64,000 bases of DNA from Alphaproteobacteria bacterium (GTDB lineage Bacteria > Pseudomonadota > Alphaproteobacteria > JAJTHO01 > CANGYM01): positions 105,104 through 169,103 of the forward strand of contig JBILMD010000002.1 of NCBI GenBank assembly GCA_044375675.1, given 5' to 3'. Both the position numbers and the translations under genes were made by a program. The notes below the pieces were generated by a model. That model was not told where the DNA came from and searched no databases. It saw only the letters and a list, made by a program, of their open reading frames with translations. Below, piece by piece: positions 6,694-51,074 of this stretch (position 1 is its first letter; every line of letters starts with the position of its first letter).

Positions 6694-7392
6694 TTACCGA
6701 TTTTCCCAATAGATTAAATCACGCCCTAGTTTTTTCAGATAATACTCTTCAGGAATATCAGGCACATATCGCAAGAAACTATGCGGATAGGGAAAAAAAT
6801 GAAAATGAGGGTTGAAAGTAAACAGATATTCCCTCTCTAAAGGAACAACAATAATCAAACGTTTGTTGCACACACGGCGCAGTTCACGGATTGCTCCTCC
6901 TATATCCAAAATGTGCTCTAATGTGTGAGTACATATGACGGTATCAAAGTGTCCATCTGGAAAGGGGAGATTTTCAATTTTGGCCTCTTGGAAATAAATT
7001 TCTGGATACTTATCCCTATCTTTTTGATGAATAATAAAATCCACGGCTGTGTATTTTTTCTTTCCTTGGGTGTTTTTAGATAGCCAATTTGCCGTGTATC
7101 CTGTACCACAACCCACGTCGCAGATAGTTTCACCAATGATTATCTGGCTTATTGCTTTTAAACAATCGATAGTGTTGTCTGTATTATCTTGGACTCTGGG
7201 GTGAGTTTCGTAAAGATCCTTATATTCTTTGGGAGTTAAAAACGGTGCATTTTTCCGAAACGTCTCTAGTTGATCGATATGTTTTCCCCAAGCGCAGCGA
7301 AATAAAAAACGCATGAAGCCGGAGTCACGTAAAATAGGAGGCACAAGCTCTTCTAAAATAAAACGAATACGGTTTGTTGTTTCCCTATTCAT
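6694..7392 (-). CDS. Class I SAM-dependent methyltransferase (low-GC, probably horizontally acquired)
   Basis: Motif I VCDVGCGTGY and a post-I acidic residue pattern (DTVICTHTLEHI). The gene and its flanks are markedly AT-rich relative to its neighbours. Confidence 0.7.
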   Translation of the reverse strand: MNRETTNRIRFILEELVPPILRDSGFMRFLFRCAWGKHIDQLETFRKNAPFLTPKEYKDLYETHPRVQDNTDNTIDCLKAISQIIIGETICDVGCGTGYTANWLSKNTQGKKKYTAVDFIIHQKDRDKYPEIYFQEAKIENLPFPDGHFDTVICTHTLEHILDIGGAIRELRRVCNKRLIIVVPLEREYLFTFNPHFHFFPYPHSFLRYVPDIPEEYYLKKLGRDLIYWENR

Positions 7393-11721: not shown

Positions 11722-12036
11722 ATGATCATCACAAACCTTGAATATGTGCCTAACCGAGACATCATTGAACATTATGGCTTAGTGAACGGCAGTTCTGTGC
11801 GTTCAAAGCACGTTGGGCGAGATTTGATTGCAGATTTTAAAAATATGTTTGGCGGTGAACTTAGGGGTTATACAGAGTTGTTGGAAGAAACACGCCAAGA
11901 AGCCTTAGAGCGTATGAGAAAACAGGCTGAAAATGTAGGTGCGAATGCCATTTTAAATGTGCGTCTTTCAACATCGTCTGTGGCATCCGGTGCAGCGGAA
12001 ATTTATGTATATGGGACAGCGGTAAGGATTGCATAG
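11722..12036 (+). CDS. YbjQ/UPF0145 (DUF74) family protein, soluble paralogue
   Basis: 104-aa protein with the YbjQ-family pattern (GLV...R...IADFKNMFGGE..YTELLEETRQEALERMRKQAENVGANAILNVRL). First gene of a low-GC island. Confidence 0.75.
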   Translation: MIITNLEYVPNRDIIEHYGLVNGSSVRSKHVGRDLIADFKNMFGGELRGYTELLEETRQEALERMRKQAENVGANAILNVRLSTSSVASGAAEIYVYGTAVRIA

Positions 12037-12499
12037 TATGGTCGATATAATGCTTGAGCATCTCGATTGGGTCGTTGGGGGCGCTTTACTGATTTTTACC
12101 GCTTTTTCTGGGAAAATCCTTGAAAATAAGCATTTCAAGGATTTGCTGGAAAGAGAAGCTGTTGCCCCAAAAATTCCCCTTGTGAATACGAAAGAAAAAA
12201 ACCTTTCCTTTGCATCTAATACACGCGCCGAGTTGGTGATTGGTAGCGTGGTGTTATCCTCTGATTTTTTCCGCTCTACTCTTGCCAGTTTCGTGGATAT
12301 TTTTGGAGGTCGTGTAGGAGTGTTAGAGAATTTAATGGATAGAGGCCGCCGAGAAGCCCTTCTTCGTGTACAAGAAAAAGCACGGGGCGCATCCCACCTC
12401 TTAAACGTGCGTTATACAACGGCAACATTAACTGATCCGAATAGAGGAGGTGTTCCTAAGGTTGAGGTTGTTGTTTATGCAACAGCCGTATACCCCTAA
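12029..12499 (+). CDS. YbjQ/UPF0145-like domain protein with N-terminal transmembrane anchor
   Basis: N-terminal hydrophobic helix (WVVGGALLIFTAF) followed by a second YbjQ-like domain (FVDIFGGRVGVLENL...EALLRVQEKARGASHLLNVRY). Overlaps the upstream gene by 8 nt, suggesting translational coupling. Confidence 0.6.
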   Translation: MHSMVDIMLEHLDWVVGGALLIFTAFSGKILENKHFKDLLEREAVAPKIPLVNTKEKNLSFASNTRAELVIGSVVLSSDFFRSTLASFVDIFGGRVGVLENLMDRGRREALLRVQEKARGASHLLNVRYTTATLTDPNRGGVPKVEVVVYATAVYP

Positions 12500-12517
12500 A
12501 GTACTCCTCTTGAAGCC

Positions 12518-13294
12518 ATGAAGTTTAAACATAAAACGTTTGATCATCAGGTTAATCATAGCACTGAACGTGAATGGGTAATTTTTGTCAGGGGGGGGCT
12601 GGGGTTAATCATTCTTGTGGTTATCACGTTAATCACCATCACATTGATTGTCCATCTTGGTGTGCAACATTTACCTAACTCAGTTGAAAGCTTTATATGG
12701 CGCCATTTGCAAACAATGGATTTTCAGGAATCTCCTATCGCAACCGAATCGTATCCGGTTGTACAGCGTGTTTTCGCTTCTTTGCCTAAACCAGATATAC
12801 CGCCTTATCTCACGCTAAAAGTTGCAGTGATGAAGGAAATAGACAGCAATGCCTTTGCTTATCCTAATGGTACCATTGTGATTTTTGAGGGATTGCTAAA
12901 GACAATAAAAAGTGAAAATGCTCTTGCTTTTGTGCTCGCCCATGAAGTGGGGCATTATGCACATCGGGATCATTTTAAGACGATGCTTGAATTGGGCCTT
13001 TATAGCATTTTAAGCTCTATAGTCGACGGTATGATGACTATCCCCAGCACGGCAGTGCAGGCACGTTTCTCCCAAAATACAGAAACTGCAGCCGATCTGT
13101 ACGCACTTGACGTGCTTTATAAGCGGTATGGTCATGTGGGCGGTGCAACCGAATTTTTTTCGACCATTCACCATAACGATTTCGAGGGGCTTGCGCTGTT
13201 TGCATCACATCCTTTAAGCAAAAAACGGATCGAAGTCTTGCGTGCGCGTATCAAAGAGAAACAGTTCCCTGAAAAGGCGACGATTCTCTTATAG
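12518..13294 (+). CDS. M48-family zinc metallopeptidase (membrane)
   Basis: HEVGH zinc-binding motif (VLAHEVGHYAHRDH) and N-terminal TM segment. Low GC. Contains a G8 homopolymer at 12591-12598. Confidence 0.75.
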   Translation: MKFKHKTFDHQVNHSTEREWVIFVRGGLGLIILVVITLITITLIVHLGVQHLPNSVESFIWRHLQTMDFQESPIATESYPVVQRVFASLPKPDIPPYLTLKVAVMKEIDSNAFAYPNGTIVIFEGLLKTIKSENALAFVLAHEVGHYAHRDHFKTMLELGLYSILSSIVDGMMTIPSTAVQARFSQNTETAADLYALDVLYKRYGHVGGATEFFSTIHHNDFEGLALFASHPLSKKRIEVLRARIKEKQFPEKATILL

Positions 13295-16199: not shown

Positions 16200-16267
16200 A
16201 TCTTAGGGCCAGAACCCTATCAGATTTGTTTGGGTTTGCAACCGTCTAAAAAGGGCAGTGTTTTTTT

Positions 16268-16837
16268 TTAAGACACCAACGTGCAGCGTCCCACGAGGGG
16301 GGCGGAGGTTTGGCGTTTGACTTGGGTGCCCACCGTGGGCTGGCGACCCTGGGCTAGGTCATCAAGCAGGGTGATGACGGTGGTTTCCGTCAGATCCTCA
16401 TAAAAATCATCATTCACTTGCAGGACGGGGGCATTCACACAGGCCCCCAAACATTCCACACGGGACAGGGTGAAGAGGCCATCGGGGGTGGTTTCCCCCA
16501 TGCGGGCGTTCAGGTGTGTGGAAACGGCGTTTTCGATGGTCTCTGCCCCCCTCAGCCAACACGGCGTGGTGCGGCAAAATTGCAGGTGGTAACGCCCAAC
16601 AGGTTTCAGGTTGAACATGGTGTAAAAGGATGCGACCTCATACACCTTAATCTCGGGAACCTCTAGCGTTTCAGACAAAAACCGCAAAACCGGCGGGGAC
16701 AACCACCCCCCATTCTGGCGCTGGGCCAAATCCAAAAATGGCAGCAGGGCACTTTGTTTGCGATTGGCAGGATAGCGGGACAAAATCACACGGGCCGTTT
16801 CTGCATTGTCGGGCGTAAAACAAAAAGAATCCGTCAT
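16268..16837 (-). CDS. nuoE: NADH-quinone oxidoreductase subunit E-like [2Fe-2S] thioredoxin-fold protein, stand-alone
   Basis: Four Cys in NuoE spacing (QFCRTTPCWLRG...VECLGACVNAP). No nuoD or nuoF adjacent. Confidence 0.75.
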   Translation of the reverse strand: MTDSFCFTPDNAETARVILSRYPANRKQSALLPFLDLAQRQNGGWLSPPVLRFLSETLEVPEIKVYEVASFYTMFNLKPVGRYHLQFCRTTPCWLRGAETIENAVSTHLNARMGETTPDGLFTLSRVECLGACVNAPVLQVNDDFYEDLTETTVITLLDDLAQGRQPTVGTQVKRQTSAPLVGRCTLVS

Positions 16838-16989
16838 GGTGGGTGACTCTGCCTAAACTTTCCCTTCAGCTATATCAAGACGCGGGGGGTGCCTGCAATG
16901 GATTTTTGTTTTGGGTTTGTTGGGCAGTTGGGATGGTGATCCTCTGGCGTCTTTTCACGAGAGGGCACCTCTATTAAGCCCCGAGGTGT

Positions 16990-17125
16990 TAAAGTCCTAT
17001 AGTGTTTCCACTTTATTCCCGTACTGGCCTGCGAACGGCGCCTAGCGTCGCTCACCTAGATTCACTAGGCAGCGCTCCGCTAGGCTTGTTCTCGGCTTTA
17101 GTCACGAAAATAAATTGAAAACACT
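16990..17125. repeat. Mosaic dispersed repeat (modules C+B), with internal imperfect palindrome
   Basis: ctttattcccgtactggcc recurs at 20565. gcttgttctcggctttagtcacgaaaataaa recurs at 24248, and as its reverse complement at 20509. The central ggcgcctagcgtcgctc...gcagcgctccgctaggc forms a hairpin. Confidence 0.55.
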
Positions 17126-17181
17126 ATATAGAGGGGAATCCCAACCCACGAGAGGTGGTGTTGACGCGATAACAGGGACCC

Positions 17182-17970
17182 CTAAAACCGAAACCGTGCC
17201 CCGATCAGCGGGCCACTGAAATTCAAATCCTTCAATAGGGCGTTATCCTCAAATTGCCATTCTATGTAACGGTACGTAACGCCAACGTCTACAGACTGAT
17301 TGATTCGGTAGCCCACGCCGGCCATGACCTGCCAAGTTAAATCGCTGTCCCCCGTGCCGATATCAACGTAATAGGGCAAATGCCAGTTTTCATCAATGCT
17401 AACATCGCCTCTGGCCCCCACAATCCCGTCCAAAAGACCCGTGGAATCGGAAAATTCACGGCTTCGGTCATGAACACGAATATCCAATGTGGCATCCAAA
17501 TTCGCATAACGCGCCCCTGCAAAGGGTTCCAGCTGAAAACGCTCTGTTTCCAAGGCCACATAGCCGATTACAGGGGTTAACACTAAGGATTTAAGATCGA
17601 CGTTTGCACGGCCACTCAGGGTTTGATCATTGGGCAAAGCAATGTCCTTGCCATTTTCGGCCGATAAATTCAGGTAGAGGGCATCCAGCGAGGCATGCCA
17701 TTTGTTATAATAAACATGGCCCACCCCCATAAACCCAAGATCCAAATTTTCTATCAAATCAGAAAAGGCCACATCGATGTCACTGCCGCCGGAGGTTTCC
17801 CCGCCCACACCCGCCGCCCATAAATAAATATCCGCGCCAAAGCTCCATGCTTTGGCAGGGTCCGTTACAGGATTGTTCGTTTCTTCGGCCCATGCCCCAT
17901 GGGACAGGATCGCCCCGCCCAAACACGTCACAAAGAGGATATTCAAAAAACGATGGCGAAGGATTGTCAT
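17182..17970 (-). CDS. Outer-membrane beta-barrel protein (MipA/OmpV-like)
   Basis: Signal peptide (MTILRHRFLNILFVTCLGGAILSHGAWA), alternating amphipathic beta-strands and a C-terminal ...IGARFRF aromatic terminus. Confidence 0.6.
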   Translation of the reverse strand: MTILRHRFLNILFVTCLGGAILSHGAWAEETNNPVTDPAKAWSFGADIYLWAAGVGGETSGGSDIDVAFSDLIENLDLGFMGVGHVYYNKWHASLDALYLNLSAENGKDIALPNDQTLSGRANVDLKSLVLTPVIGYVALETERFQLEPFAGARYANLDATLDIRVHDRSREFSDSTGLLDGIVGARGDVSIDENWHLPYYVDIGTGDSDLTWQVMAGVGYRINQSVDVGVTYRYIEWQFEDNALLKDLNFSGPLIGARFRF

Positions 17971-18155
17971 GGCAAAGGAAATTTTAATAACGATGTTAAC
18001 CCTTAATACGATAGTCTCGCCTTTGGAGCAAGTGCCCACCGCGCGGCTTGGCGCCGCCAACGGTACCAGTCATTCTGGCGATAAGTTCTGTGTGGAAACC
18101 TGCGCGGGTCTTTGCTAAGATGATTTTATCTAAAAACCGGTTAGAGAGGGCAAGA

Positions 18156-18833
18156 ATGCGTCACATCGTACTGGATACAGAAACAACCGGTTTGGATCCG
18201 GCGCAGGGCCACCGTCTGGTGGAAATTGGCTGTGTGGAGGTTATCCATTATGTGCCAACCGGCAGGGTTTATCATCAATACATCAACCCAGAGCGGGATA
18301 TTCCCCAAGGGGCCTTTGCGGTGCATGGGTTATCAGAGTCCTTTTTAAAAAAACACCCCCCGTTTCGGGAGATTTCTGAGGATTTTCTGGCGTTTGTGGG
18401 GCAGGATCCTTTGGTGATTCATAATGCCAAGTTTGATATGCGTTTTTTGAATGCAGAACTTTCAAGCCATGGCTTAACCCCCTTGCCCATGGAGCGTGCC
18501 ATTGACACCGTGACCTTGGCGCGAAAAAAATTTCCCGGGGGCCGCGCCAGTTTGGATGCCCTCTGTCAACGCTTTGGGATTGATCTTTCGAAACGTGAAA
18601 AACACGGGGCCCTGCTGGATGCCGAGCTGTTGGCGGATGTGTATTTAGAGCTGATGGGGGGGCGCCAACCAGGCTTTGGCATGGCCGCAGAATCGTCCGC
18701 AAAAACGCAAGAGGGGCTTTCATCGGGGATTACGGCAGAGCGCCCCTTAAGGCCGGCGCGTCTTTTCAGCCCCACCGAGGTCGAGAAAGAGCGTCATGTT
18801 CCCTTTATTCAAAATCTGCGGGGGGCTGCCTGA
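18156..18833 (+). CDS. dnaQ: DNA polymerase III subunit epsilon (3'-5' exonuclease)
   Basis: Exo I motif VLDTETTG, Exo II HNAKFDMRFL and Exo III HGALLDAELLADVY. Confidence 0.9.
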   Translation: MRHIVLDTETTGLDPAQGHRLVEIGCVEVIHYVPTGRVYHQYINPERDIPQGAFAVHGLSESFLKKHPPFREISEDFLAFVGQDPLVIHNAKFDMRFLNAELSSHGLTPLPMERAIDTVTLARKKFPGGRASLDALCQRFGIDLSKREKHGALLDAELLADVYLELMGGRQPGFGMAAESSAKTQEGLSSGITAERPLRPARLFSPTEVEKERHVPFIQNLRGAA

Positions 18834-19009
18834 TGTCTTATCTTCTTTATGCGTTTATGGGGTTGACCCTTCTGAGTTTGCTGCTGGGGTTATCGTATTT
18901 TGTTCGCCCATCTGAGGCAGCCCGTCTGAAATCCAACAGGATCATGCAGGCCCGTGTTTTGTTTCAGGCGGCGGCTCTGTTGTGTTTGGCCCTTTTGTTA
19001 ATGCGCTAA
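18833..19009 (+). CDS. Small (58 aa) two-transmembrane-helix protein, not in the ORF track (below cutoff)
   Basis: The ATG overlaps the dnaQ stop (ATGA). Sequence MSYLLYAFMGLTLLSLLLGLSYFVRPSEAARLKSNRIMQARVLFQAAALLCLALLLMR has two hydrophobic helices and resembles twin-TM HIG1-like small proteins. Confidence 0.4.
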   Translation: MSYLLYAFMGLTLLSLLLGLSYFVRPSEAARLKSNRIMQARVLFQAAALLCLALLLMR

Positions 19010-19015
19010 GGTTTT

Positions 19016-19222
19016 ATGTCTTCGCCCGATCCTGCTTTGCTGAGTCTTTTGGTGTGCCCTGAAACGCGGGGACCGCTGCGTTATGATGCCGATCATCAAG
19101 AACTCATCAGCCTGCAGGCCAAAGTGGCCTATCCCATTCGCCACGGCATCCCCATCATGCTGTGCGATGAAGCCAGAACGCTGACGGATGAAGAGCTGCA
19201 ACGTTATGCTGTGACGGGCTGA
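19016..19222 (+). CDS. Trm112-family protein (UPF0434/YcaR-like)
   Basis: 68 aa with [14 protein letters not shown]...[11 protein letters not shown], the Trm112 zinc-ribbon-like signature. Confidence 0.7.
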
Positions 19223-19223
19223 T

Positions 19224-20294
19224 ATGTCCGAAGATCAGGACGATTCCCAAAAAACCGAAGACCCCTCGCAGAGGAAGCTGGAGCAGGCGAAGGAAAAAGG
19301 ACAAACGGTTTCCTCTAAGGAATTGTCCCACTTTTTTATTCTGCTTGGCGGGGCTTTGTCCCTGATGATTGTGTTGCCGGATCTGGGGGTTCAATTAACG
19401 GATTTTATGACGCCTTTTTTAGGGCGCGTTCATGACATGGACCTTTCGGCCGAGGGCCTGAGATCCATCTTCCTCGGTATCGTGCTGCGCGTGGGCATGG
19501 TTATGGGGCTGTTTGCGGTCCTGATGATGCTGGCCGGATTTTTGGGATCTTTTTTGCAACACGGATTTTTATTCAGCACACAAAGCATCACCCCATCATT
19601 GGATCGGATTTCGGTTTTTAAGGGGTTTAAGCGCATTTTCAGCATGAAATCCGTTGTGGAGCTGGCAAAAAATCTGGCCAAGCTTGTGATTATTGGGGCG
19701 ATTGTCTCCTCTTTGGTGATTCCCCTTTTTGGGGAAGAGATTACCCTTTTGCCGACCCTGTCCTTGGGCGATCAAATGGAGTATTTGCGTTATTATGCCC
19801 TGCGGATTCTGGGGGGCGCTATGGGGGCCATGCTGGTGATTGCGGGGGCGGACTATGCCTTTCAATTTTTCCAATTTCGCAAAGAGATGCGAATGACCAA
19901 ACAAGAGGTTAAGGAAGAATACCGACAAACTGAAGGGGATCCCAAGGTTAAATCGAAGCTCAAACAAGTCCGGCGAGAGCGGGCCCGCAGACGGATGATG
20001 GCCAAGGTGAAGGATGCCACGGCCATTATCACCAACCCTACCCACTATTCCATTGCCATTGTGTATGACAAAGAAAGCGCCGCCGCCCCCATTGTCGTGG
20101 CCAAAGGGGTTGATGCCGTGGCCATGAAAATCAGGGAGGAAGCCAAAAAATATGACATCCCTCTGGTGGAAAATCCCCCCTTGGCCCGCGCCCTTTATCA
20201 GGTGGATCTGGATGAAGAAATCCCCTTTGAACATTACGAAGCCGTGGCCAAAGTGGTTTCCTATGTTTTTGGCCTGAAAAAGAAAAAGTCCTAA
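19224..20294 (+). CDS. flhB: Flagellar biosynthesis protein FlhB
   Basis: NPTH autocleavage motif (ITNPTHYSIAI), four N-terminal TM helices and 356 aa length. Confidence 0.9.
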   Translation: MSEDQDDSQKTEDPSQRKLEQAKEKGQTVSSKELSHFFILLGGALSLMIVLPDLGVQLTDFMTPFLGRVHDMDLSAEGLRSIFLGIVLRVGMVMGLFAVLMMLAGFLGSFLQHGFLFSTQSITPSLDRISVFKGFKRIFSMKSVVELAKNLAKLVIIGAIVSSLVIPLFGEEITLLPTLSLGDQMEYLRYYALRILGGAMGAMLVIAGADYAFQFFQFRKEMRMTKQEVKEEYRQTEGDPKVKSKLKQVRRERARRRMMAKVKDATAIITNPTHYSIAIVYDKESAAAPIVVAKGVDAVAMKIREEAKKYDIPLVENPPLARALYQVDLDEEIPFEHYEAVAKVVSYVFGLKKKKS

Positions 20295-20345
20295 GGAGTG
20301 TTGACAGGTTCCTTAGGAATCCGCATAAGTACCTTGTGTTTTTTA

Positions 20346-20420
20346 GGGCGTATAGCTCAGGGGTAGAGCGCTACGTTGACATCGTAGAGGTCCGTGGTTC
20401 GAGACCACGTACGCCCACCA
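20346..20420 (+). tRNA. tRNA-Val (anticodon GAC), CCA encoded
   Basis: Cloverleaf with acceptor GGGCGTA/TACGCCC, anticodon stem-loop CTACG-TTGACAT-CGTAG, T-arm GGTTCGAGACC and 3' CCA. Confidence 0.9.
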
Positions 20421-20484
20421 GAAAAATCAATGCGCCAGAGGATGTGCCTTCTTGCGAGACACCCCCTGTGCTGCCTATGTGGTA

Positions 20485-20605
20485 TGGTATTTTGCCTTTA
20501 TTTTTGTACTGAGCCGAGAACAAGCTCAGCGGAGCGATGCCTATGGTTTTTCCTCTTTATTTCCGTACTGGCCCGTTGTTTTCCAGAGCCAAGCGGGGGG
20601 GGAGG
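20485..20605. repeat. Two tandem copies of repeat module C plus an inverted copy of module B
   Basis: ctttatttttgtactgagccgagaacaagctcagcggagcgatgcc at 20496-20542 and ctttatttccgtactggccc at 20565-20584. gagccgagaacaagc is the reverse complement of gcttgttctcggc at 17084 and 24248. Confidence 0.55.
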
Positions 20606-20649
20606 GGATAGCGTACGCCCTTCGCCCCCCAAGGCAACGATTGTTTTCG

Positions 20650-23013
20650 TTATTTCAAATCAATGGTCAGTTTTTCCAGTGTCCCCGTGAATTTGTACGG
20701 CATGGCATCGGCGTAGTCTTGTAATACAGGGCTTCCCGTGTCTTCCCCTACGTCGAACGTTTCATCAAGAGATAAGCGGTTGGGCAGGGTGCGCGCGATG
20801 CGGCCCTCAGCCACTTTTTTATCATCAATGAAGAGCGTTCCCAAGCCGCCTTGACCACGGCCACCGCCATCATAAACAAAGTCAAAGCGGATGGTGTGTT
20901 TGCCGCCAGACAGCACTGTATCGGAAACAATACGGGTTTTGTGCTCTGGCTGATTCGACAGAGCATAGGCAAACTCTGGTTTTCCGTCATCGTTGACCAA
21001 CAGTGCCCAGCCACCAAAATTGCCCCCAGTGGTTGCAAGGATACCCTTGGCCGGACTGTTGGGCAAGGTAACCTCTGCGGTTATGGTGTAGGATCTGTTT
21101 TTGGTATTGGGCGCCGTTCCCTCGGAAATGCGCGTCATGCCAGGATAGTATACAAAAGAGGTTCGACCCAAGGTCAGGCTGGGACGAATGGCAGGATCCA
21201 ACCGTGTGGCCGCCGAGGAATCCAGAGGATAAACGCCAAATTTTTTGGCCTCTTGATCAAAAATGGCCTGCATATCTTTCAGTTTCCCAGGATTGCTGGC
21301 CGCCAAATCGTTGGACTCTGAGAAGTCATTGGCAACGTTATAGAGTTCCCATTTAAAGTCATCCGGAGACGTCTCAGCGGCAGCCCCCGTAAGAACCCAC
21401 GGCAAACGCAGCGGTGTTGTCGCAGCCACCCATCCATCATGATAAATGGCGCGATTGGACATCATTTCAAAATACTGTGTCGTGCGGTGCGAAGGCGCTT
21501 TTGGATCATCAAACGTATAAAGCATGCTTTTTCCCTCAACAGGCTTTTGTTTAACGCCGTTGATTTCTTTGGGGAAAGAAAGATTGGCCGCCTGTAAAAT
21601 GGTGGGCAACACATCAATCACGTGATGAAATTGGGGCCGTATGGCGCCCTGATCCTTAATGGTCTCAGGCCAAGAAATAACCAAACCATTGCGGGTCCCG
21701 CCAAAGTGGGAAGCGACCTGCTTGGCCCACTGGAATGGTGTGTTCATGGCATGGGCCCAACCCACGGGGTAATGGTTATAGGTCTGGGGGCTGCCCAAGT
21801 TATCCATTTGGGAGAGCAAGTAGTCTAAGCTTTCTGGAATCCCATTAAAGGCCGTGGCGTTTTCGTTGGTGGTGCCTTGCAGGCTACCCTCGGCACTGGC
21901 ACCGTTGTCACCCTGAATGAAAAGAATCATGGTGTTGTCCAGTTTTCCCATATCAGCCACGGACTGAATGACGCGACCAATTTGGTAATCCGCGTGGGCC
22001 AGAGCCGCCGCATAGACTTCCATCATGCGGGAAAACAGGCGTTTTTGATCGGCGCTCAAAGAATCCCACGCGGGGATTTCTTTCGGACGTGGTGTCAAAA
22101 CGGCATTGGCAGGAATGATGCCCATGGCTTTTTGACGGGCAAAGGTCTCTTCGCGCACTTTGTCCCAACCCTGATCAAACTGCCCTTTGAATTTGGCAAT
22201 CCAGTCTTTCGGGGCATGATGGGGGGCATGGGCCGTACCAGGGGCATAATACGCGAAGAAAGGCTTGTTTGGGTTCAGGGCATTTTGGGTGCGAATCCAA
22301 GTAATGGCCTTATCCGCCATCAGCTGGTCGAAGTGCACGGGGTTTTTGCCTTTCTGCTCCGCAGCCTGAATCGGTTTTGTGCCTTCATAAATGGGGGTGC
22401 TCCACTGATCAGCATCGCCGCCAATGAATCCATAAAAATACTCAAATCCCAATCCTGTGGGCCATAAATCGAAAGGACCGGCTTGGCTGTTTTGCCAATC
22501 GGGAATGTTATGATTTTTTCCAAACCAAGCGGTGCTGTAACCGTTTTGCTTCAACACCTCGGCAACGGTACCGTTGGCTTTGGACATCAGGGAGTTATAG
22601 CCAGGATACCCTGTGCCTGCCTCCATAATCACGCCCGTATTGGCGCTGTGGTGGTTACGACCCGTAATCAGAGCCGCGCGGGTGGGGGAACACAGGGCCG
22701 TGGTGTGAAACTGGGTATAGCGCAGACCACGCTTGGCCAAGGCATCCAAGGTTGGCGTAGCAATGGGGCCACCAAAGGGGCTGGACGCGGAAAAACCCAC
22801 GTCATCGGTCAGAATCAACAGAACGTTGGGGGAGCCTTTCGCGGCCTGAAAAGGCTGAGGGAAATCGGGTGTCGAATCCTTGGCAAGGCGTTCAATTTTT
22901 CCCTTAAACGGCTGATCTGGGCGGGGCAGAACCTCCTGCGCCATCGCGGATACCGGCAAAAGAAAGGAGAATAGGACAACAAGGGCCCCAAAAAATTTGC
23001 GTTTTATGGACAT
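20650..23013 (-). CDS. Arylsulfatase (type I sulfatase) with a ~250-aa C-terminal extension, secreted
   Basis: Signal peptide and the sulfatase signature C/S-x-P-x-R (TTALCSPTRAALITGR), with conserved metal-binding Asp/His. Start MSIKRK is preceded by a GAGG RBS. Confidence 0.9.
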   Translation of the reverse strand: MSIKRKFFGALVVLFSFLLPVSAMAQEVLPRPDQPFKGKIERLAKDSTPDFPQPFQAAKGSPNVLLILTDDVGFSASSPFGGPIATPTLDALAKRGLRYTQFHTTALCSPTRAALITGRNHHSANTGVIMEAGTGYPGYNSLMSKANGTVAEVLKQNGYSTAWFGKNHNIPDWQNSQAGPFDLWPTGLGFEYFYGFIGGDADQWSTPIYEGTKPIQAAEQKGKNPVHFDQLMADKAITWIRTQNALNPNKPFFAYYAPGTAHAPHHAPKDWIAKFKGQFDQGWDKVREETFARQKAMGIIPANAVLTPRPKEIPAWDSLSADQKRLFSRMMEVYAAALAHADYQIGRVIQSVADMGKLDNTMILFIQGDNGASAEGSLQGTTNENATAFNGIPESLDYLLSQMDNLGSPQTYNHYPVGWAHAMNTPFQWAKQVASHFGGTRNGLVISWPETIKDQGAIRPQFHHVIDVLPTILQAANLSFPKEINGVKQKPVEGKSMLYTFDDPKAPSHRTTQYFEMMSNRAIYHDGWVAATTPLRLPWVLTGAAAETSPDDFKWELYNVANDFSESNDLAASNPGKLKDMQAIFDQEAKKFGVYPLDSSAATRLDPAIRPSLTLGRTSFVYYPGMTRISEGTAPNTKNRSYTITAEVTLPNSPAKGILATTGGNFGGWALLVNDDGKPEFAYALSNQPEHKTRIVSDTVLSGGKHTIRFDFVYDGGGRGQGGLGTLFIDDKKVAEGRIARTLPNRLSLDETFDVGEDTGSPVLQDYADAMPYKFTGTLEKLTIDLK

Positions 23014-23087
23014 AAAAACCTCATTTGGTACATGCATACTCCTTTATGGAAACAAAAAACCCAATTGTCACGAAAAAAACATTTGGT

Positions 23088-24179
23088 TTAGTGCATATTC
23101 GCGCTGCGAACACAGCGAAATCCCAAGTGATTTGTGCCGGTGGAGGGTTCACCCTTGCCCCGTGTTCCCACCATATAACGCGAGCAATACTGGTTGGTGC
23201 ACAAAAAAGATCCGCCCCGATGAACCTTTTTTTCAACGCCCATCTCAACAGGATCAAAAGATTTTTCTGGCCCCTGTGGATTTTTGGCCACCCCACCTGC
23301 CGTGACAAGCGTTTGATAATAATCCGGCGTGTACCAATCGCTGACCCATTCCCAAACATTGCCCGCCACATCATACAGGCCATAGCCGTTAGGGGGGAAT
23401 TGCGCAACGGGGGCCAGTCCATGAAAGCCATCGGTTGCGGTGTCTTTGTTGGGAAAGCTCCCTTGATAGGTATTCGCCATGCCTTTTTTTGTGGGGGGGG
23501 CAAACTCATCGCCCCACGCATACAGCTTGCCCGTTAGGCCCCCACGGGCGGCAAATTCCCATTCGGCCTCGGTGGGCAGGCGTTTCCCCGCCCATTTCGC
23601 ATAGGCCAGCGCATCCTGATAGGCCACGTGCACAACGGGAACATTGTCTTTTCCAACGATGGAACTCTCGGGCCCCGTGGGGTGTTTCCAGTTGGCACCG
23701 TGAACATAACGCCACCACTGAAGATGATCGTTAAGGGGCACAGCGTTTTGGGGCGCATAAAAAACAACGGACCCTGCCACCAAATTTTCTGGGGGCGCCC
23801 CTGGGAAATCTTCAGCCTTGGGGGCTTTTTCCGCCAAGGTGATATAGCCTGTGGCCTTCACAAAGCGGGCAAAATCCGCATTGGTGACCTCGGTTGTATC
23901 CATCCAAAACCCATCGACATAAACGCGGTGAATGGGGCGGGAATCATGTGTGGTCTGCATCCCAACATCATTGTGATCGATGCCGTGGGGATGCGCCGCG
24001 CCCATGGAAAATTCGCCGCCCGGAATCCAGACCATACCCTTGGGGGCAGGACCCTCAGGCTTTGTTGTGTTGGGGATGGTGGGTAAAAATTCTGATGGTG
24101 CAGCCTTAGCAGGGGGATTTTCCGCCACAGCCAAACCGCTGTTCAAAACAAGGATCACGAAAGCAAAGAGGATTTTCAT
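23088..24179 (-). CDS. Formylglycine-generating enzyme (FGE/SUMF1-family), secreted
   Basis: Signal peptide plus FGE-sulfatase domain hallmarks (WEWVSDWY, HRGGSFLC, GFRCVR). Lies 74 bp upstream of the sulfatase on the same strand. Confidence 0.85.
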   Translation of the reverse strand: MKILFAFVILVLNSGLAVAENPPAKAAPSEFLPTIPNTTKPEGPAPKGMVWIPGGEFSMGAAHPHGIDHNDVGMQTTHDSRPIHRVYVDGFWMDTTEVTNADFARFVKATGYITLAEKAPKAEDFPGAPPENLVAGSVVFYAPQNAVPLNDHLQWWRYVHGANWKHPTGPESSIVGKDNVPVVHVAYQDALAYAKWAGKRLPTEAEWEFAARGGLTGKLYAWGDEFAPPTKKGMANTYQGSFPNKDTATDGFHGLAPVAQFPPNGYGLYDVAGNVWEWVSDWYTPDYYQTLVTAGGVAKNPQGPEKSFDPVEMGVEKKVHRGGSFLCTNQYCSRYMVGTRGKGEPSTGTNHLGFRCVRSANMH

Positions 24180-24247
24180 GGCATGGTTTTCCTTTTTTTT
24201 CAGAGTAAGCGTCCCAATATAAACAATTGGGCATCACTCTGCCAGTC

Positions 24248-24400
24248 GTGTTCTCGGCCTTAGTCACGAAAATAAAGCAGGACTTGCGCACACCCTTTGT
24301 CATTGCGAGCGCAGCGAAGCAATCCAGACATGCCGCTACGGGAAAGACTGGATTGCCACGCCTCCTGCGGAGGCTCGCAATGACGATGTGCGTAAGTCCT
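24248..24400. repeat. Repeat module B fused to structured repeat family A (copy 1)
   Basis: 24248-24280 matches 17084-17117. 24281-24400 is ~97% identical to 47458-47560 and contains nested inverted repeats (gacttgcgcac/gtgcgtaagtc, tcattgcgagc/gctcgcaatga, gcaatccag/ctggattgc, gcctcc/ggaggc). Confidence 0.65.
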
Positions 24401-24415
24401 ATAAAGTAAAAATAC

Positions 24416-24452
24416 TTTAAAAAGGATCCCCGCATTATGCGGGGATCTTTTG
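24416..24452 (-). terminator. Rho-independent terminator downstream of rplA (palindromic, so potentially bidirectional)
   Basis: GATCCCCGCATTATGCGGGGATC hairpin flanked by an A-run and a T-run. Confidence 0.55.
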
Positions 24453-24474
24453 AGTATGCAAACGATCCGAAAGA

Positions 24475-25158
24475 TTAAACTTTCACCGTCAGGCCCACAC
24501 CCATGGTGGAAGAAAGGGTCATTTTTTTAATGTATGTGCCCTTCATGTCGGCAGGTTTGGCCCGTTGAATAACATCGTAGAGAGCCTGAAAATTTTCACG
24601 AAGTTTCACCAAATCAAAGCTGACTTTTCCGAACGGGGCATGGATAATCCCTGTTTTTTCCGTGCGGTATTCCACCTGACCGGCCTTGGCATCGGCAACA
24701 GCTTGGGTCACATTCATGGTCACCGTGCCCAGTTTGGGGTTGGGCATCAGGCCCTTGGTTCCCAGAATTTTTCCCAGACGTCCCACCAAAGCCATCATGT
24801 CCGGCGTGGCAATGCACACGTCAAAATCAATGGTGCCGCCCTGGATGATTTCAACCAAATCTTCTGCGCCAATGATATCGGCGCCGGCGGCTTTGGCCTC
24901 TTCGGCCTTGGCACCACGGGCAAACACGGCCACACGGGCTTGTTTTCCACCTTTTCCGTGGGGCAGGGTAAGCATCCCGCGGATGTTTTCATTGGCTTTG
25001 CGGGGATCCACGCCCAGCATCAAGGCCAATTCGATGGTTTCATCGAATTTGACTTTGCTGTTATCCTTCAGAATCTGCAAGGCTTCGTCCAAACCGTAAA
25101 CCTTGGCGGTGTCAACAGCCTGTAAAGTGGCGGCCACACGTTTTGCTAGTTTTGCCAT
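24475..25158 (-). CDS. rplA: 50S ribosomal protein L1
   Basis: 227 aa with strong L1 family similarity throughout. Confidence 0.95.
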   Translation of the reverse strand: MAKLAKRVAATLQAVDTAKVYGLDEALQILKDNSKVKFDETIELALMLGVDPRKANENIRGMLTLPHGKGGKQARVAVFARGAKAEEAKAAGADIIGAEDLVEIIQGGTIDFDVCIATPDMMALVGRLGKILGTKGLMPNPKLGTVTMNVTQAVADAKAGQVEYRTEKTGIIHAPFGKVSFDLVKLRENFQALYDVIQRAKPADMKGTYIKKMTLSSTMGVGLTVKV

Positions 25159-25175
25159 AAAAATCCCTTTATGTT

Positions 25176-25607
25176 TTAATCTTCAATAACTTCTAGGCCC
25201 ATGGAAACGGCTGAACCGGCAATCATGCGGGCGGCGGCTTCGCGGTCGTGGGCATTCAGGTCCTGCATTTTTTTATCCGCAATGGACAAAATTTGGCTGC
25301 GCGTGATTTTTCCCACAAAACCACGGCCGGTGGTTGAGGATCCTTTGGGCAGACCAGACTCTTTTTTCAAAAAATAACTGACAGGCGGCGTTTTGGTCAC
25401 AAAACTAAAGCTGCGATCCGCATAAACGGTAATGACGACAGGAATGGGGATGCCGGCTTCCAGCTTTTGCGTTTCGGCGTTAAACGCCTTACAAAATTCC
25501 ATAATGTTGACACCCCGTTGACCCAAAGCGGGACCCACAGGGGGGGCAGGGTTCGCTTTTCCCGAAGGAATTTGCAGTTTAATATAACCTGTAATTTTCT
25601 TGGCCAT
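25176..25607 (-). CDS. rplK: 50S ribosomal protein L11
   Basis: 143 aa with the L11 N-terminal PPVGPALGQ motif. Confidence 0.95.
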
Positions 25608-25623
25608 AATCCATCATCCTGAT

Positions 25624-26190
25624 TTAAATTTTTTCAACTTGGCTATAATCCAGTTCCACTGGGGTTTTGCGCCCGAAAATGGACACGGAAACCTTCAGCT
25701 TTTGGCGGCTTTCTTCCAAATCCTCCACCGTGGCGGAGAAGTTTTCAAAGGGACCATCAATAATGCGAATGTTTTCCCCGATTTCAAAAATGACACCCCG
25801 ACGAACCTCTTTAAAGCCCCCTTGGATATGGCCAAGCAAACGGTCTGATTCTGCTTTGCTTAAGGGAACAGGCTTGCTTTTCGCGCCCCCCCCTAAAAAG
25901 TTGACCACCCGCTTGTTATCCATAATCATATGCCAAGCGGGATCGGTCATGATCATGTTAATCAGAACGTATCCGGGAAAAAATTTTCGCTCTGTGTGGA
26001 CTTTTGTGCCTTTTTTCACGTCCTGAGCCTCTTCGACAGGGACAACAACATCGAAAATTTCGCCGTCCAGACCCTTTTCCAGGGCTTGCTCGCGAATGGA
26101 TTCAGCGACCTTGTTTTCAAAGCCCGAGTGGACCTGAATCACATACCACCGTCCCTTGGGCGCGGGCGTTGTGGTTTTGGGCGTCGTCAT
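25624..26190 (-). CDS. nusG: Transcription termination/antitermination factor NusG
   Basis: NGN domain (WYVIQVHSGFENKV) and C-terminal KOW (VEDLEESRQKLKVSVSIFGRKTPVEL). Start set at MTTPK, which has an AGGA RBS. The ORF track extends about 20 codons further. Confidence 0.88.
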   Translation of the reverse strand: MTTPKTTTPAPKGRWYVIQVHSGFENKVAESIREQALEKGLDGEIFDVVVPVEEAQDVKKGTKVHTERKFFPGYVLINMIMTDPAWHMIMDNKRVVNFLGGGAKSKPVPLSKAESDRLLGHIQGGFKEVRRGVIFEIGENIRIIDGPFENFSATVEDLEESRQKLKVSVSIFGRKTPVELDYSQVEKI

Positions 26191-26242
26191 AGTATCCTGC
26201 ATGCTTTCAACAATAAAAAAGAGGGCCGAATCGTCGCAACGA

Positions 26243-26569
26243 TCAGCCAAGGAGGACCTTTATACCATAAGATAAAATTTGGTCCACAAGAAAAAAGAAC
26301 AAAGACAAAATCGCCACCATCACGAAAACCATCACCGTGGTCATGGTGGTTTCTTTGCGTGTGGGCCATGTAATGCGCCCGATTTCTGAGCGTGTCAGAC
26401 GGAAAAATTCAGCCACACCGATTTTTTTGGTGTGACTTTTGTCCCCACCCGCTGCGTCGTTGACCCCTGCGGCCACAGCAAGGGGCTTGGCACCTGCCAA
26501 AGGATTCGCTGAGATTTTGCCTTTGGGCTTAGGCTTTGATTGTGCCTTTGAGGAGTTATTTTTACGCAT
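26243..26569 (-). CDS. secE: Preprotein translocase subunit SecE
   Basis: Position immediately upstream of nusG. C-terminal SecE pattern EFFRLTRSEIGRITWPTRKET followed by a TM helix. The N-terminal extent is uncertain. Confidence 0.7.
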   Translation of the reverse strand: MRKNNSSKAQSKPKPKGKISANPLAGAKPLAVAAGVNDAAGGDKSHTKKIGVAEFFRLTRSEIGRITWPTRKETTMTTVMVFVMVAILSLFFFLVDQILSYGIKVLLG

Positions 26570-33395: not shown

Positions 33396-33801
<406 letters not shown>

Positions 33802-47371: not shown

Positions 47372-47457
47372 AAAAGAATCCCCATCACTGTGTTGTCATC
47401 AATCAAAAACCGAATCATAATCCCCGCAGGGGTTGGAGGCAATAAAAAATAGAGGGT

Positions 47458-47560
47458 GACTTGCGCACAACCTTTGTCATTGCGAGCGCAGCGAAGCAAT
47501 CCAGACATGCCGCCACGGGAAAGACTGGATTGCCACGCCTCCTGCGGAGGCTCGCAATGT
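47458..47560. repeat. Structured repeat family A (copy 2)
   Basis: ~97% identical to 24281-24400 over about 100 bp, with the same nested inverted repeats. Confidence 0.65.
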
Positions 47561-47579
47561 GCGTAAGTCTTAAAACCTT

Positions 47580-47846
47580 TTAAGCATCAGAGGCGAGAAT
47601 CTCTGACAGGATTTCAGGGGTTAGGCCGCGCTGGGCTGCTTTTTCGGCAAGGTCATGGCGCAAAGACAGGAAATTTTGGGATTTTAACGCCTGCCACTGG
47701 GCAAAATCTTGCATGGAAATGACGGCCACGCAATCGCGCTTGTGCCGCTTGATAATCACAGGCGCATGCTGGGCCCGATCCAAAAGAGCCCCAAAATGGT
47801 TTTGCGCGTCTCGAGAGGACATAATGTCAGTCATGATGAACATCAC
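47580..47846 (-). CDS. Phd/YefM-family type II antitoxin, orphan (no adjacent toxin ORF)
   Basis: NHFGALLDRAQHAPVIIKRHKRDCVAVISMQDF matches the Phd/YefM fold pattern. The start codon is ambiguous (GTG/ATG options). Confidence 0.65.
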   Translation of the reverse strand: MMFIMTDIMSSRDAQNHFGALLDRAQHAPVIIKRHKRDCVAVISMQDFAQWQALKSQNFLSLRHDLAEKAAQRGLTPEILSEILASDA

Positions 47847-48057
47847 AGTCTATGGGATGATTGGTTATAAGTGTAGCGATAATAGAGATTTTTGTCAAGA
47901 TTTTGATCCCAAAACATCACTTCCCCCCAAAAAAATTTTTTGGGTTTGGCGGGAAAATGTGATATTTGTTATAGTTGTGAAAAGTGAGATTTGTTATATT
48001 TTTTCTCTAAAATAACTTAAGAAGCCAAAGCATTCTAGAAAAGGTTTTTATACGTTT

Positions 48058-51000
48058 ATGGCGAATCATCCTATTTTTTCTGATGAAAAGAAAGATCTCT
48101 TTGTTTATTTGTTAGATAAACAAAGAGAAGTTGCCGGAGATGAGCAAGAGGATTTTCAGACAGCCTTGGCTATTTATCAGGGAACCTTTGAGGGCCAGAG
48201 AGAGGGTGCACACAATCCTGTTTTAAATCCTAAAGTGGCCAAATATTTACTAACGATTATTGAAATCGAAAGGATTGCGGGAGAGGTTTCCACCTTTCGT
48301 TATAAAGAGGATAATAGATCAGAGAGCGTGACACCTGTTGAGGGTACCCCTAGATTTTTGATAAAAAATATGAGGGATGCTGGTGTACCTTATAAGGAAG
48401 CTTTGGAAATTCTTGCGACCATTCAAGATCACCCTGTTTTAACAGCCCACCCGACCAATACCCTTGATTCACAACGGCTTATTGTTCATCAAAACTATAA
48501 AAACGACCTTGTAAGGCTGGACCCCCGCACAAATCCCGAGGCCATAGATAACATAGTCATAGGGTATTTAACATCTTTGAATGGACAGCGTTTGGTTGCA
48601 GATAATAAGAGTGTTGAAGAAGAGGTTCGAGATGCACTAACGCATGCTGGAAACCGTTGGGAAGGCATAGAATTTATTTATGGAGCCTTTGAAAAAGCTT
48701 TGAAGGAATATTATCCGGCAGAGTATCGTGACGGAGATCTTAAGCTCAATTTAAAGATCAGTTCTTGGGTCGGTGGCGATAAAGATGGCAATAAATCGAT
48801 TGATGAACAAACAACAAGGAAGACTATCCTTGCCCATGATGCTGAGGCTCGTCTTAAATTTACAGCAGCGATAGATCGTATCGCCGGAGATTTGACACTA
48901 AAGACATCCGGTGATGATCCTTTTCTGAAGCGTATCATGGATATTGTGCGTGATGATAAGCAGCCCGATGAGGGTCGGGATCTCAATCTTATGGATGTTG
49001 CGCCTATCCAAGAAGCTTTGGCATCTATGTTGGAAGATCTTTCCTATCAGTTTGCCAACAATTCCATCAGGCTTTTTCAACGTCAAATCGATTGTTTTGG
49101 GGGGACTGCAGGGAAACTGGAATATCGTGAAAATAGTGTACTATTAATGGAAGCCTTGGACGTTTTGCTGAAAGAATCCGTCCCTGGTTATGAAGCATAC
49201 GAAACTCCAGCAGACAAAGAAGAGCTTTATACCCAAATTTTGATGGGGGAACGTCCTGATATCAATTTAAATCATCACCTAAGAGTTCAGTTAAAAAAGC
49301 TGGAGGATAAAAAGGCTAGGGGAGAGAGTCTAGAAAAGAAGGAAAATGCCTTTGTGACGACCTTTGGTCGTTTTGAATTGGCCTTGTTGAATCCAGAAAT
49401 TATTGAAAATCATGTTATTGCTGAGGCCACAGACAATTTTCAAATCTTAGGGGTCGAAGTTATAAAAAAGGCAGTGTCCCAAAAATTAAACGATGAAGGA
49501 AAGACATCAACGCCACATTCTTTGCGGTTAACGCCCCTTTATGAAAGCCCAGAGGATATGGCCGCTATACCAGCAAGAATGGATGCACTTTTGGATAATC
49601 CTGCTTATCAGGATAGTTTAGAAGGGCAAAGAGTCCATTTTGGCTTTAAAAAGCTCTTTCAAGCGATTAAGGTGGCCATGAGCGATACCATGCGCCGTGG
49701 AAGCTTAGTGGGGGCTCGCATTGCTATACATCGGGCCATCAAGAAAACCCAAGAGGTCATGGTCAAATGCGGTGTCAGTCCACAGATCGATTTTGGGGGT
49801 AGTCAAACAGACCCGATGCGTGATGGCGGAAGAGCCATGGGATTCAAAGTCAAGTTGTACAAATTGTTATCGCATGGGTTAAAATATACATCGCAAGGAA
49901 TTGATCTGGTTCATTTTATGGGTGGTCCAGCAACAGGTCCTTTTTGCTTGGCCAATCTTGTGGCTTTGGGGCAGGGGCTTTTTAAAGACCGCTACACCCC
50001 AGAAAATCCCCCTTTGTCTCGTCTTAGCGATCAAGTTGACGATATTCTTTATGAGGCTTTGCCGGATATTGTTAAAAATTATGAAGACACCTTTTTTAAC
50101 GATCCCTTAACAAACGAGTTGCTTGAGGCACTTGATTATAATGGTATCACAACAGCTGGCAATTCATCGAGTCGTGCAAAAGGCCGCAGTGATAAGATTC
50201 GTATTCAAGATGTGCGCTCGATTAGCTTAACGGAAACTTTTCAACATAGTCAACTTGTTCCTGGGTACTTGGGATGTTCGGTGTTGAAAAGAAATATTTA
50301 TGAAAAAATAAACACTATTTTGGATGATTCAGCCAATCAGACAGAGTTGGCCAAATGCCTGCGTGTGATTGCATCCAATCATAATCATAGCAAAGATGAG
50401 GCGTTTTATAGCGCTGCTCTTAATTTTATGTTTAACCGTAGCCCTTTAATGAGGGATACTATGGATCGAGTTGGGCATTCTGTTGCTTGTACAAATTTTG
50501 AAACAGTTTGGAAAAGTCTTTTTAATGAACCTTTGCCTGCAGAGGAAAAGATTAATGCGCTAAAAGGGGAAAATTCGCTTCGGGGGCATCTGGTTCGGAT
50601 TATGCAGGACTATAGAGCAGGGGCTGCCGTATCCTATGCTGCTCAATCAGGCGAACCCCTTCAAGAAGTTTCCATTATAAGTACAGAAAAAAAGCTAGAA
50701 ACAATGTACCCTCATTTTCAAGGTTATTTTGTGGCAAATGATAATGTGTTTCCTTTTTTGGTTGAGGCACGAAAAACATTTGAAGAATTACGACAATCTG
50801 AAAATCAGGGCTCTTCACAGTCAAAGTTAACTGAAGAGAGGGTCGTTCATGCTATCGGTGATGGTTTGATTTTTTCGAACCCAGATGCAGCGAAATACCT
50901 ACTTTCTTGGGCTAATTTTTTAGCGGATCATCCGGAAATACAAGATCAAATCCAAAATAACGTCGGCAAAGCTAAAGAAATTTTAGTAGAGGCAGGTTTA

Positions 51001-51072: not shown

Positions 51073-51074
51073 CC

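Follow-up and report, generated by a model that had tools for sequence, protein, structure and literature searches.

The stretch of DNA from an uncultured alphaproteobacterium analyzed in this work (64 kb in full, hereafter the window) contains a gene for a formylglycine-generating enzyme (FGE) and a gene for an S1 sulfatase, placed between the ribosomal protein gene rplA on one side and a tRNA-Val gene on the other (Table 1). According to ARAGORN and Rfam, this tRNA-Val(GAC) is the sole tRNA of the window, and its 3' end points toward the sulfatase gene. The two enzymes are encoded by the only genes located between the tRNA and rplA (20421-24474), and the window as a whole holds one sulfatase and one FGE. 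Transcription of the minus strand would follow the order ftsH, secE, nusG, rplK, rplA, terminator, FGE and sulfatase; the last two genes are separated by a gap of 74 bp on the same strand, and the interval of 295 bp between rplA and the FGE gene carries repeat modules. An earlier note on this DNA had described a succession of tRNA-Val, repeats, sulfatase, FGE, modules B and A and rplA terminator, and all of these features were found in the places it had assigned to them. The terminator is kept in two contigs of the same species (L085 and L087) and in a contig of a sister species (L003). From the short gap, the common strand, the same gene order in other lineages and the terminator upstream, we infer that the FGE and sulfatase genes would be co-transcribed. 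A promoter scan for the FGE gene returned 5 sites versus 3.5 expected in shuffled sequences, which is not above the shuffles, and no promoter is claimed; a weak promoter-like site upstream of the gene (minus strand, 24245-24216) overlaps module B.

Table 1. Features of the FGE-sulfatase locus and related repeat copies, with positions in the 64-kb window.
Feature	Positions	Strand	Description
Most complete copy of the B/C repeat element	16996-17135		Unrelated intergenic site between two unrelated genes
tRNA-Val (anticodon GAC)	20346-20420	+	ARAGORN; Rfam RF00005, 67 bits
Repeat-module block between tRNA-Val and sulfatase gene	20421-20649		229 bp
~34-nt module, two copies	20481-20514, 20540-20573
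Inverted ~32-nt module	20512-20543
Cys-type S1 sulfatase, 787 aa	20650-23013	minus	Signal peptide, PAS-like catalytic fold, C-terminal LamG-like domain
Laminin-G/concanavalin-A-like beta-sandwich domain (predicted), sulfatase residues 590-787	20653-21246	minus
Putative recombination patch, sulfatase residues 541-787	20653-21393	minus
Formylglycine motif C108-S-P-T-R112 of sulfatase	22678-22692	minus	Aligned to PAS C51-R55
Sec-type signal peptide of sulfatase	22939-23013	minus	MSIKRKFFGALVVLFSFLLPVSAMA, followed by QE; read from translation
FGE (aerobic, SUMF1 type), 363 aa	23088-24179	minus	Signal peptide
Catalytic cysteine pair C327 and C332 of FGE	23184-23201	minus	Within GGSFLCTNQYCSRY
Module B	24230-24276		Half copy of the 16996-17135 element; 85% identical to 17068-17114; 27-nt core
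Module A	24277-24410		134 nt; near-perfect ~120-nt hairpin, MITE/REP-like, strain-specific insertion
Intrinsic terminator of rplA	24447-24425	minus	10-bp stem, 7 GC pairs, then CTTTTT
rplA	24475-25158	minus
Second copy of module A	47446-47559		Unrelated intergenic site, adjoining low-GC gene; 95-98% identical

The sulfatase open reading frame (ORF; 20650-23037, minus strand) codes for 795 aa when counted from the first ATG, and the 787-aa form starting at 23013 is preceded by GAGG 5 nt upstream and corresponds to the one used in public records. The protein matches the Pfam family Sulfatase (PF00884) with E=2.7e-59 over profile positions 1-300 of 301, and its residues 61-586 align to the Pseudomonas aeruginosa arylsulfatase (PAS) structures 1HDH and 4CXK with E~1e-69. 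In the HMMER alignment, residues D70, D71, C108 and R112 fall on PAS D13, D14, C51 and R55, and residues K166, H168, H262, D369 and N370 on PAS K113, H115, H211, D317 and N318, revealing sequence features of an S1 sulfatase, namely the catalytic domain, the C/S-x-P-x-R signature, the metal ligands and the catalytic Lys, His and Asp. Roles have been described for PAS C51, R55, H115 and D317, those of the nucleophile cysteine and the stabilizing arginine among them, and PAS is listed in SulfAtlas subfamily S1_4 (PMC5066984); the window enzyme is likened to S1_4 only through PAS, the closest solved structure. Since its motif reads CSPTR, the enzyme is of the Cys type and would need an aerobic FGE. 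AtsA/PAS (1HDH) is its best solved homolog: both have a two-domain fold like that of alkaline phosphatase, a CSPTR motif and the same residues for metal binding and catalysis. Unlike PAS, which consists of 536 aa and whose alignment stops at about residue 586, the window sulfatase has an N-terminal Sec-type signal peptide, with a basic n-region, a hydrophobic core and A-M-A ahead of the cleavage site, as well as a C-terminal laminin-G (LamG)/concanavalin-A (ConA)-like domain of ~200 aa.

Regarding the second gene, its product matches the Pfam family FGE-sulfatase (PF03781) with E=2.6e-78 over profile positions 3-255 of 255, and its matches in the PDB are the FGEs of Streptomyces coelicolor (6MUJ, 2Q17), human (1Y1E) and Thermomonospora curvata (5NXL, 6S07), with E values of 1e-69 to 1e-73. 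Cysteines C327 and C332 are aligned to the GGSYLCHDSYCNRY cysteines of the S. coelicolor enzyme, the copper-binding active-site pair. A full-length domain and the two active-site cysteines are those of an aerobic, SUMF1-type FGE; the GldK, EgtB, SenA and PvdO profiles scored far under their NCBIfam cutoffs, and the retention of the cysteine pair sets the protein apart from GldK, EgtB and PvdO. Homology to the aerobic FGEs of human (SUMF1), S. coelicolor and T. curvata extends over the full length and includes the domain and both cysteines; unlike these solved enzymes, the window FGE bears a cleavable-looking Sec-type signal peptide (MKILFAFVILVLNSGLAVA, followed by E) and ~25 further N-terminal residues. 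The signal peptides, judged by eye from the translation, imply a predicted periplasmic location of the FGE. Human FGE resides in the lumen of the endoplasmic reticulum, and a periplasmic FGE would parallel that arrangement.

The Pfam matches, the CSPTR motif, the FGE cysteines and the Sec-type signal peptides bear out what the earlier note proposed on the identity of the genes and on their forming a two-gene unit, and as far as sequence and fold can show, the functions of both genes are confirmed. A mechanism can be outlined on this basis. The genes would form an FGE-then-sulfatase operon on the minus strand, with a start region of its own beyond the rplA terminator, and homology suggests that both products would be exported by the Sec pathway. 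A periplasmic, copper- and oxygen-dependent FGE would oxidize Cys108 of the unfolded sulfatase to C-alpha-formylglycine, and the mature sulfatase would hydrolyze sulfate esters by the mechanism of PAS. The locus provides a clean case of a putatively exported Cys-type sulfatase paired with a putatively exported FGE, implying that formylglycine may be formed in the periplasm of a Gram-negative bacterium.

The C-terminal extension of the sulfatase had been estimated in the earlier note at about 250 aa; the extension itself was recovered, and the PAS alignment places its length at ~200 aa (residues ~587-787). The Pfam family Laminin_G_3 matched this region below threshold (18.2 bits versus a cutoff of 27.6, E=0.0029), so that residues 590-787 are not members of the curated family and the resemblance is one of fold. 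An AlphaFold2 model built from a 16-sequence alignment displays a beta-sandwich (pLDDT 78.7, pTM 0.79), and Foldseek returned 91 matches in the PDB at E<=0.001, the top ones having TM-scores of 0.45-0.55; these correspond to agrin and laminin LG domains, neurexin and a sialic-acid-binding CBM40, with a probability of 1.0 and E values down to 3e-7. According to the predicted model, residues 590-787 are a LamG/ConA-like domain by fold, and none of the solved sulfatase chains matches this ~200-aa domain by sequence. Given the usual role of such domains, its probable function is to bind the substrate or a surface. In the search for sulfatase homologs, all 8000 of the 8000 scored candidates had E<=0.001, and the best 120 of these 8000 are at least 66% identical to the window protein and cover 88-100% of its length (96-100%, save three truncated entries); Binatia, Pyrinomonadaceae and Alphaproteobacteria are among the names in the set. 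Of the 120 best homologs, 119 cover the LamG-like domain, with 57-75% identity, and the domain is therefore a trait of the family, not special to the window gene.

The exact FGE and sulfatase proteins occur on public contigs. Contigs L085, L086, L087 and L101 belong to the same species as the window, with which they share 97.6-98.9% DNA identity, and have the common order ftsH-secE-nusG-rplK-rplA-FGE-sulfatase-tRNA-Val-flhB. Two further contigs, L003 and L004, represent a sister species; their sulfatase genes share 99.7% identity, and the encoded protein is 87% identical to that of the window. The FGE and sulfatase genes are present in 5 of 5 same-species contigs and also in the sister species, which keeps the order secE-nusG-rplK-rplA-FGE-sulfatase with both flanks rearranged: upstream of secE, two unrelated genes stand in place of ftsH, and downstream of the sulfatase gene are found RNase T, HIG, Trm112 and flhB in opposite orientation, then ftsH, and no tRNA. 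The tRNA-Val gene occupies the same place in L085-L087 and is absent at the sister-species junction in L004. Since the sister species retains the linkage to rplA in the absence of the tRNA, the pair travels with rplA and not with the tRNA. The sizes of the clusters built at 90% identity (120 members for the sulfatase and 111 for the FGE, versus 75 for flhB, 43 for ftsH and 41 for nusG) roughly suggest that the pair is more than a rare accessory.

Relatives beyond these two species were sought with L1, the rplA product, and the identities obtained within the lineage formed a series of 100, 98, 97, 96, 93 and 92%, with one at 79%, followed by values of <=68%. The relatives at 92% (L095-L097) carry secE-nusG-rplK-rplA followed by genes for a glycosyltransferase, a C-terminal processing protease and others; in those at 79% (L098-L100), the same four genes are followed by hypothetical and riboflavin genes. 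Scans of metagenomes with DNA patterns for relatives with 93-98% L1 identity gave 0 and 1 match, the latter being L101, a strain of the L087 type. The earlier note had set inheritance of the pair at this locus in all relatives against its own proposal of an island; such vertical synteny holds within the species and in the sister species, and fails in the 92% and 79% L1 relatives, which lack the pair there. Because the pair is at the site in two species and absent from it in more distant relatives, its arrival preceded the split of the two species. The pair is specific to the site downstream of rplA in a small clade.

The composition of the locus is that of its surroundings. The segment 20650-24180 has a GC content of 0.526, compared with 0.522 in the window (z=0.24), and in tetranucleotide distance from the window as a whole it ranks at the 23rd percentile among sliding windows of its size; GC at third codon positions (GC3) is 0.570 in both genes versus 0.580 ± 0.074 in 53 ORFs, and codon-usage distances are ordinary. 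The deviating composition expected of an island was therefore not encountered, as GC, GC3, codon usage and tetranucleotides are all typical of the core. As for mobility functions, no integrase gene lies between tRNA-Val and rplA, where the two genes alone are found, and in L085, a collinear contig, the genes called within 10 kb include no integrase or transposase Pfam family. The last 25 nt or 18 nt of the tRNA-Val 3' end do not recur in the 64 kb at <=3 mismatches. A 9-nt match to the tRNA 3' end at 20614-20622 (CGTACGCCC) was considered as an attachment (att) site remnant and discarded as a chance match, as neither L085 nor L003 conserves it. With respect to known tRNA-linked genomic islands, the sole likeness is the position beside a tRNA 3' end; the window locus differs from them in being without integrase, att duplication or compositional deviation, and in its linkage to rplA instead of the tRNA. 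Among close relatives, there was no presence/absence polymorphism with an empty site at the tRNA.

The repeats on both sides of the pair, correctly noticed in the earlier note, do not have the meaning of island boundaries given to them there, since copies are dispersed at 17 kb and 47 kb in the window: they are dispersed intergenic hairpin elements. A repeat search with blastn-short identified 16996-17029 and 17066-17097 as the partners of the modules on the tRNA side, and pattern searches with the repeat cores had 0.00 matches expected in shuffled sequences. The ends of the 16996-17135 element are imperfect inverted repeats of ~35 nt, as judged by eye. The tRNA-side block is conserved in same-species contigs; in the sister contig L004, homology is lost at ~20575, inside this block, which suggests that the repeats mark rearrangement breakpoints. 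An inversion between 17066-17097 and 20512-20543 was considered for the rearrangement in the sister species and does not fit L004, where the inverted block is 18026-20296 and leaves out an outer-membrane protein gene and the tRNA. On the other side of the pair, L085, L087 and the sister contig L003 have a diverged version of module B.

Module A displays the traits of a miniature inverted-repeat transposable element (MITE) or repetitive extragenic palindromic (REP) element, being a short non-coding hairpin with two copies in 64 kb and insertion polymorphism. Its folding energy is -44.5 kcal/mol (z=-9.6), and its ends are GGACTTGCGCACA and TGTGCGTAAGTCC. It is missing from L085, L086, L087, L101 and L003, with ~16 nt in its place; since these five contigs carry the pair, module A is a recent, strain-specific insertion into an existing rplA-FGE intergenic region. 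A possible CTTTAT duplication lies on both sides of the copy at 24.3 kb, with ~11 nt of the empty-site sequence missing, and the copy at 47 kb has no clear target-site duplication. REP elements and bacterial interspersed mosaic elements (BIME), Correia elements and Rickettsia palindromic elements are known miniature inverted-repeat or palindromic intergenic elements of bacteria. Module A resembles such elements in its size of ~120 nt, its long hairpin, its intergenic location, its occurrence in more than one copy and its polymorphism among strains, a likeness of form; Rfam gave no match to it. A perfect inverted match of 17 nt links 22194-22210 (sulfatase codons KDWIA) with 24342-24358, at the center of module A (blastn-short, E=4e-4), and is probably due to chance. 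Mechanically called ORFs that run through module A (24106-24435, minus, 109 aa; 24227-24409, plus, 60 aa) would be spurious if called as genes; in translation they yield strings like LDCFAALAMT, which we take to be of a kind with those of repeat-derived hypothetical proteins in many genomes.

Comparison with the sister species revealed that the sulfatase gene is not uniform in its divergence. Identity at 4-fold degenerate sites between window and sister is 0.83-0.87 for secE, nusG, rplK, rplA and FGE, and 0.64-0.68 for RNase T, flhB and ftsH; in the sulfatase gene it is 0.73 (170/234) for residues 1-540 and 0.35 (33/95) for residues 541-787, with a random expectation of 0.31. A single-breakpoint scan located the change at residue 540, at about position 21393 of the window (Fisher p=3.6e-10), and DNA identity to the sister drops from ~0.90 to ~0.71 at ~21400, to be back at ~89% in the first 135 nt past the sulfatase stop codon (counted by hand). 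At the protein level, residues 541-787 are 74-75% identical between the two species and <=69% identical to any other of the 120 homologs. Selection on the protein does not explain saturated synonymous sites, which therefore indicate a deeper coalescence of the LamG-coding segment. The most likely cause, as read from these sequence patterns, would be that a divergent allele, carried by an unsampled member of the wider clade, was brought in by homologous recombination. Exchange is also suggested by L087 and L101, which carry an extra sulfatase gene and an FGE allele that is ~95% identical to that of the window while the flanks exceed 98%. The extra gene (8252-9904 in L087) lies between the FGE and large sulfatase genes, has a GC content of 0.52, and codes for a 550-aa Cys-type sulfatase with the motif CTAGR.

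With the integration of these findings, we regard it as likely that the locus is a resident chromosomal FGE-sulfatase operon and not an island targeted to a tRNA, that it stood at rplA before the two species split, and that its LamG segment was later recombined. Several observations weigh against this reading. The FGE and sulfatase genes are missing downstream of rplA in the 92% and 79% L1 relatives, where DNA homology to the window stops exactly at the rplA stop codon and the flanks are unrelated, with no empty site to be seen; among the matches listed, the pair was found within 10 kb of rplA in 0 of 80 other alphaproteobacterial loci, which at L1 identities of <=67% are informative on distant taxa only; gene content at the locus varies between strains, as in the extra sulfatase and the FGE allele of L087 and L101; and both proteins are 70-77% identical to homologs of unrelated phyla (72% for the sulfatase and up to 77% for the FGE, in Binatia, Pyrinomonadaceae and Bryobacteraceae), with L1 at <=68% outside the lineage, which fits an older horizontal origin. 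The absence of the pair in these relatives, its cross-phylum identities and the continuing gene flux at the locus, seen in the extra sulfatase of L087 and in the recombination patch, are what would be expected if the pair were an old, horizontally acquired cassette that entered downstream of rplA before the species split and has since ameliorated. This concerns the origin only and is compatible with the favored account of present function; we hold it to be somewhat improbable, although by no means far-fetched. Against it stand a composition indistinguishable from the core, the lack of any mobility gene or att site, and the heavily rearranged state of the lineage, in which rplJL-rpoBC do not follow rplA and the sister flanks differ, so that relocation explains the pattern equally well; moreover, the sulfatase family is unusually conserved (all of the best 120 at or above 66%), which makes cross-phylum identity weak evidence. 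Transfer from another lineage and relocation within the genome would each fit an arrival at the rplA site.

The other two explanations assign a role to the sequences bordering the pair, and both fare badly. The earlier note saw in the locus a classic island, recently inserted at the tRNA-Val 3' end and bounded by repeats, and it is true that the tRNA 3' end faces the pair and that modules occur on both sides, including one inverted pair (20513-20541 and 24230-24258) that is 76% complementary. This proposal was overturned, however, by the core-typical composition, the lack of an integrase and of any duplication of the tRNA 3' end, the sister species, which links the pair to rplA and not to the tRNA, and the same repeats at 17 kb and 47 kb; besides, the supposed boundary module A came later than the pair, being absent from five contigs that already carry it. 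We consider such an island highly improbable. The inverted partial B/C copies that flank the pair, together with sister-species breakpoints in or beside repeat blocks (for instance at ~20575), could also be accommodated by a composite mobile unit, in which two inverted copies of a small repeat mobilize the genes between them by means of a transposase encoded elsewhere. Yet neither copy is complete and they match at only 76%, no target-site duplication was seen, no second copy of the cassette was seen anywhere, the pair in the sister species moves with secE-nusG-rplK-rplA and not as a repeat-bounded unit, and sulfatase homologs in other lineages are not beside an FGE gene; this mode of mobilization is hardly credible. 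The favored account, a resident operon linked to rplA, removes a false island call and indicates that adjacency to a tRNA plus repeats is insufficient for such a call in a repeat-rich genome, a point whose importance beyond annotation is small.

The gene order of the resident operon has counterparts in other lineages. FGE homologs that are 74-76% identical lie upstream of or near sulfatase genes on the same strand in L092/L093 and L094, sharing the operon logic of the window pair; the partner sulfatases there are types of 556-604 aa, whereas the window partner is the LamG-bearing type. In other lineages (L089, L092-L094), homologs of the 550-aa sulfatase lie near an FGE gene or near a sulfatase of the large type, and three homologs of the large type (780-810 aa, 70-72% identical) have no FGE gene beside them, two of them being near other sulfatase genes. 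It seems, then, that FGE followed by sulfatase is a common operon form and that the pairing with the LamG-bearing type is specific to the clade.

As a further contribution, the C-terminal domain of a very large and unstudied group of sulfatases is here identified as LamG/ConA-like. Our literature search for a characterized member of ~790 aa, including mycobacterial AtsA/Rv0711, found nothing usable. The occurrence of sulfatases of 780-810 aa at >=66% identity across several phyla is the basis for a broader and rather doubtful idea, which we offer tentatively: these exported, PAS-like LamG sulfatases may constitute an uncharacterized subfamily that depends on a periplasmic FGE and in which the LamG domain acts as a ligand-binding module that sets specificity and is swapped between lineages as a cassette by recombination. 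If so, the saturated synonymous divergence confined to the LamG domain would represent one such exchange.

Some further observations concern the surroundings of the locus. Throughout the lineage, down to 79% L1 identity, rplJ-rplL-rpoB-rpoC never follow secE-nusG-rplK-rplA (24475-26569 in the window; L095-L100), and a different gene set follows rplA in each sub-lineage; no homologs of rplJ, rplL or rpoB were found in the 64-kb window when queried with ORFs from eight alphaproteobacterial loci. In L085, a 427-aa gene that lacks a Pfam match (16819-18102) is located between 2Fe-2S thioredoxin-like and lipoamide dehydrogenase-like genes; it is lacking in L087 and in the window, where a 68-bp gap (16200-16267) is found, and represents a strain-specific insertion or deletion.

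Regarding composition elsewhere in the window, the most deviant stretch is 47500-51100, with a GC content of 0.41-0.44 and the highest tetranucleotide distance, immediately beside the second copy of module A; foreign origin is more plausible for this stretch than for the sulfatase locus. An ORF of 1004 aa in this stretch (48058-51072, plus strand; GC3 0.35) has a partial match to the Pfam family PEPcase (E=1.5e-35, residues 65-283). Other genes with low GC and atypical codon usage are a methyltransferase gene (GC 0.385; 6694-7392, minus strand) and the YbjQ-like and peptidase M48 genes (GC 0.43-0.44; 12029-13294, plus strand). Finally, a bacterial class A RNase P RNA (33398-33800, plus strand; 289.6 bits) was identified, which is usable for phylogenetic placement.

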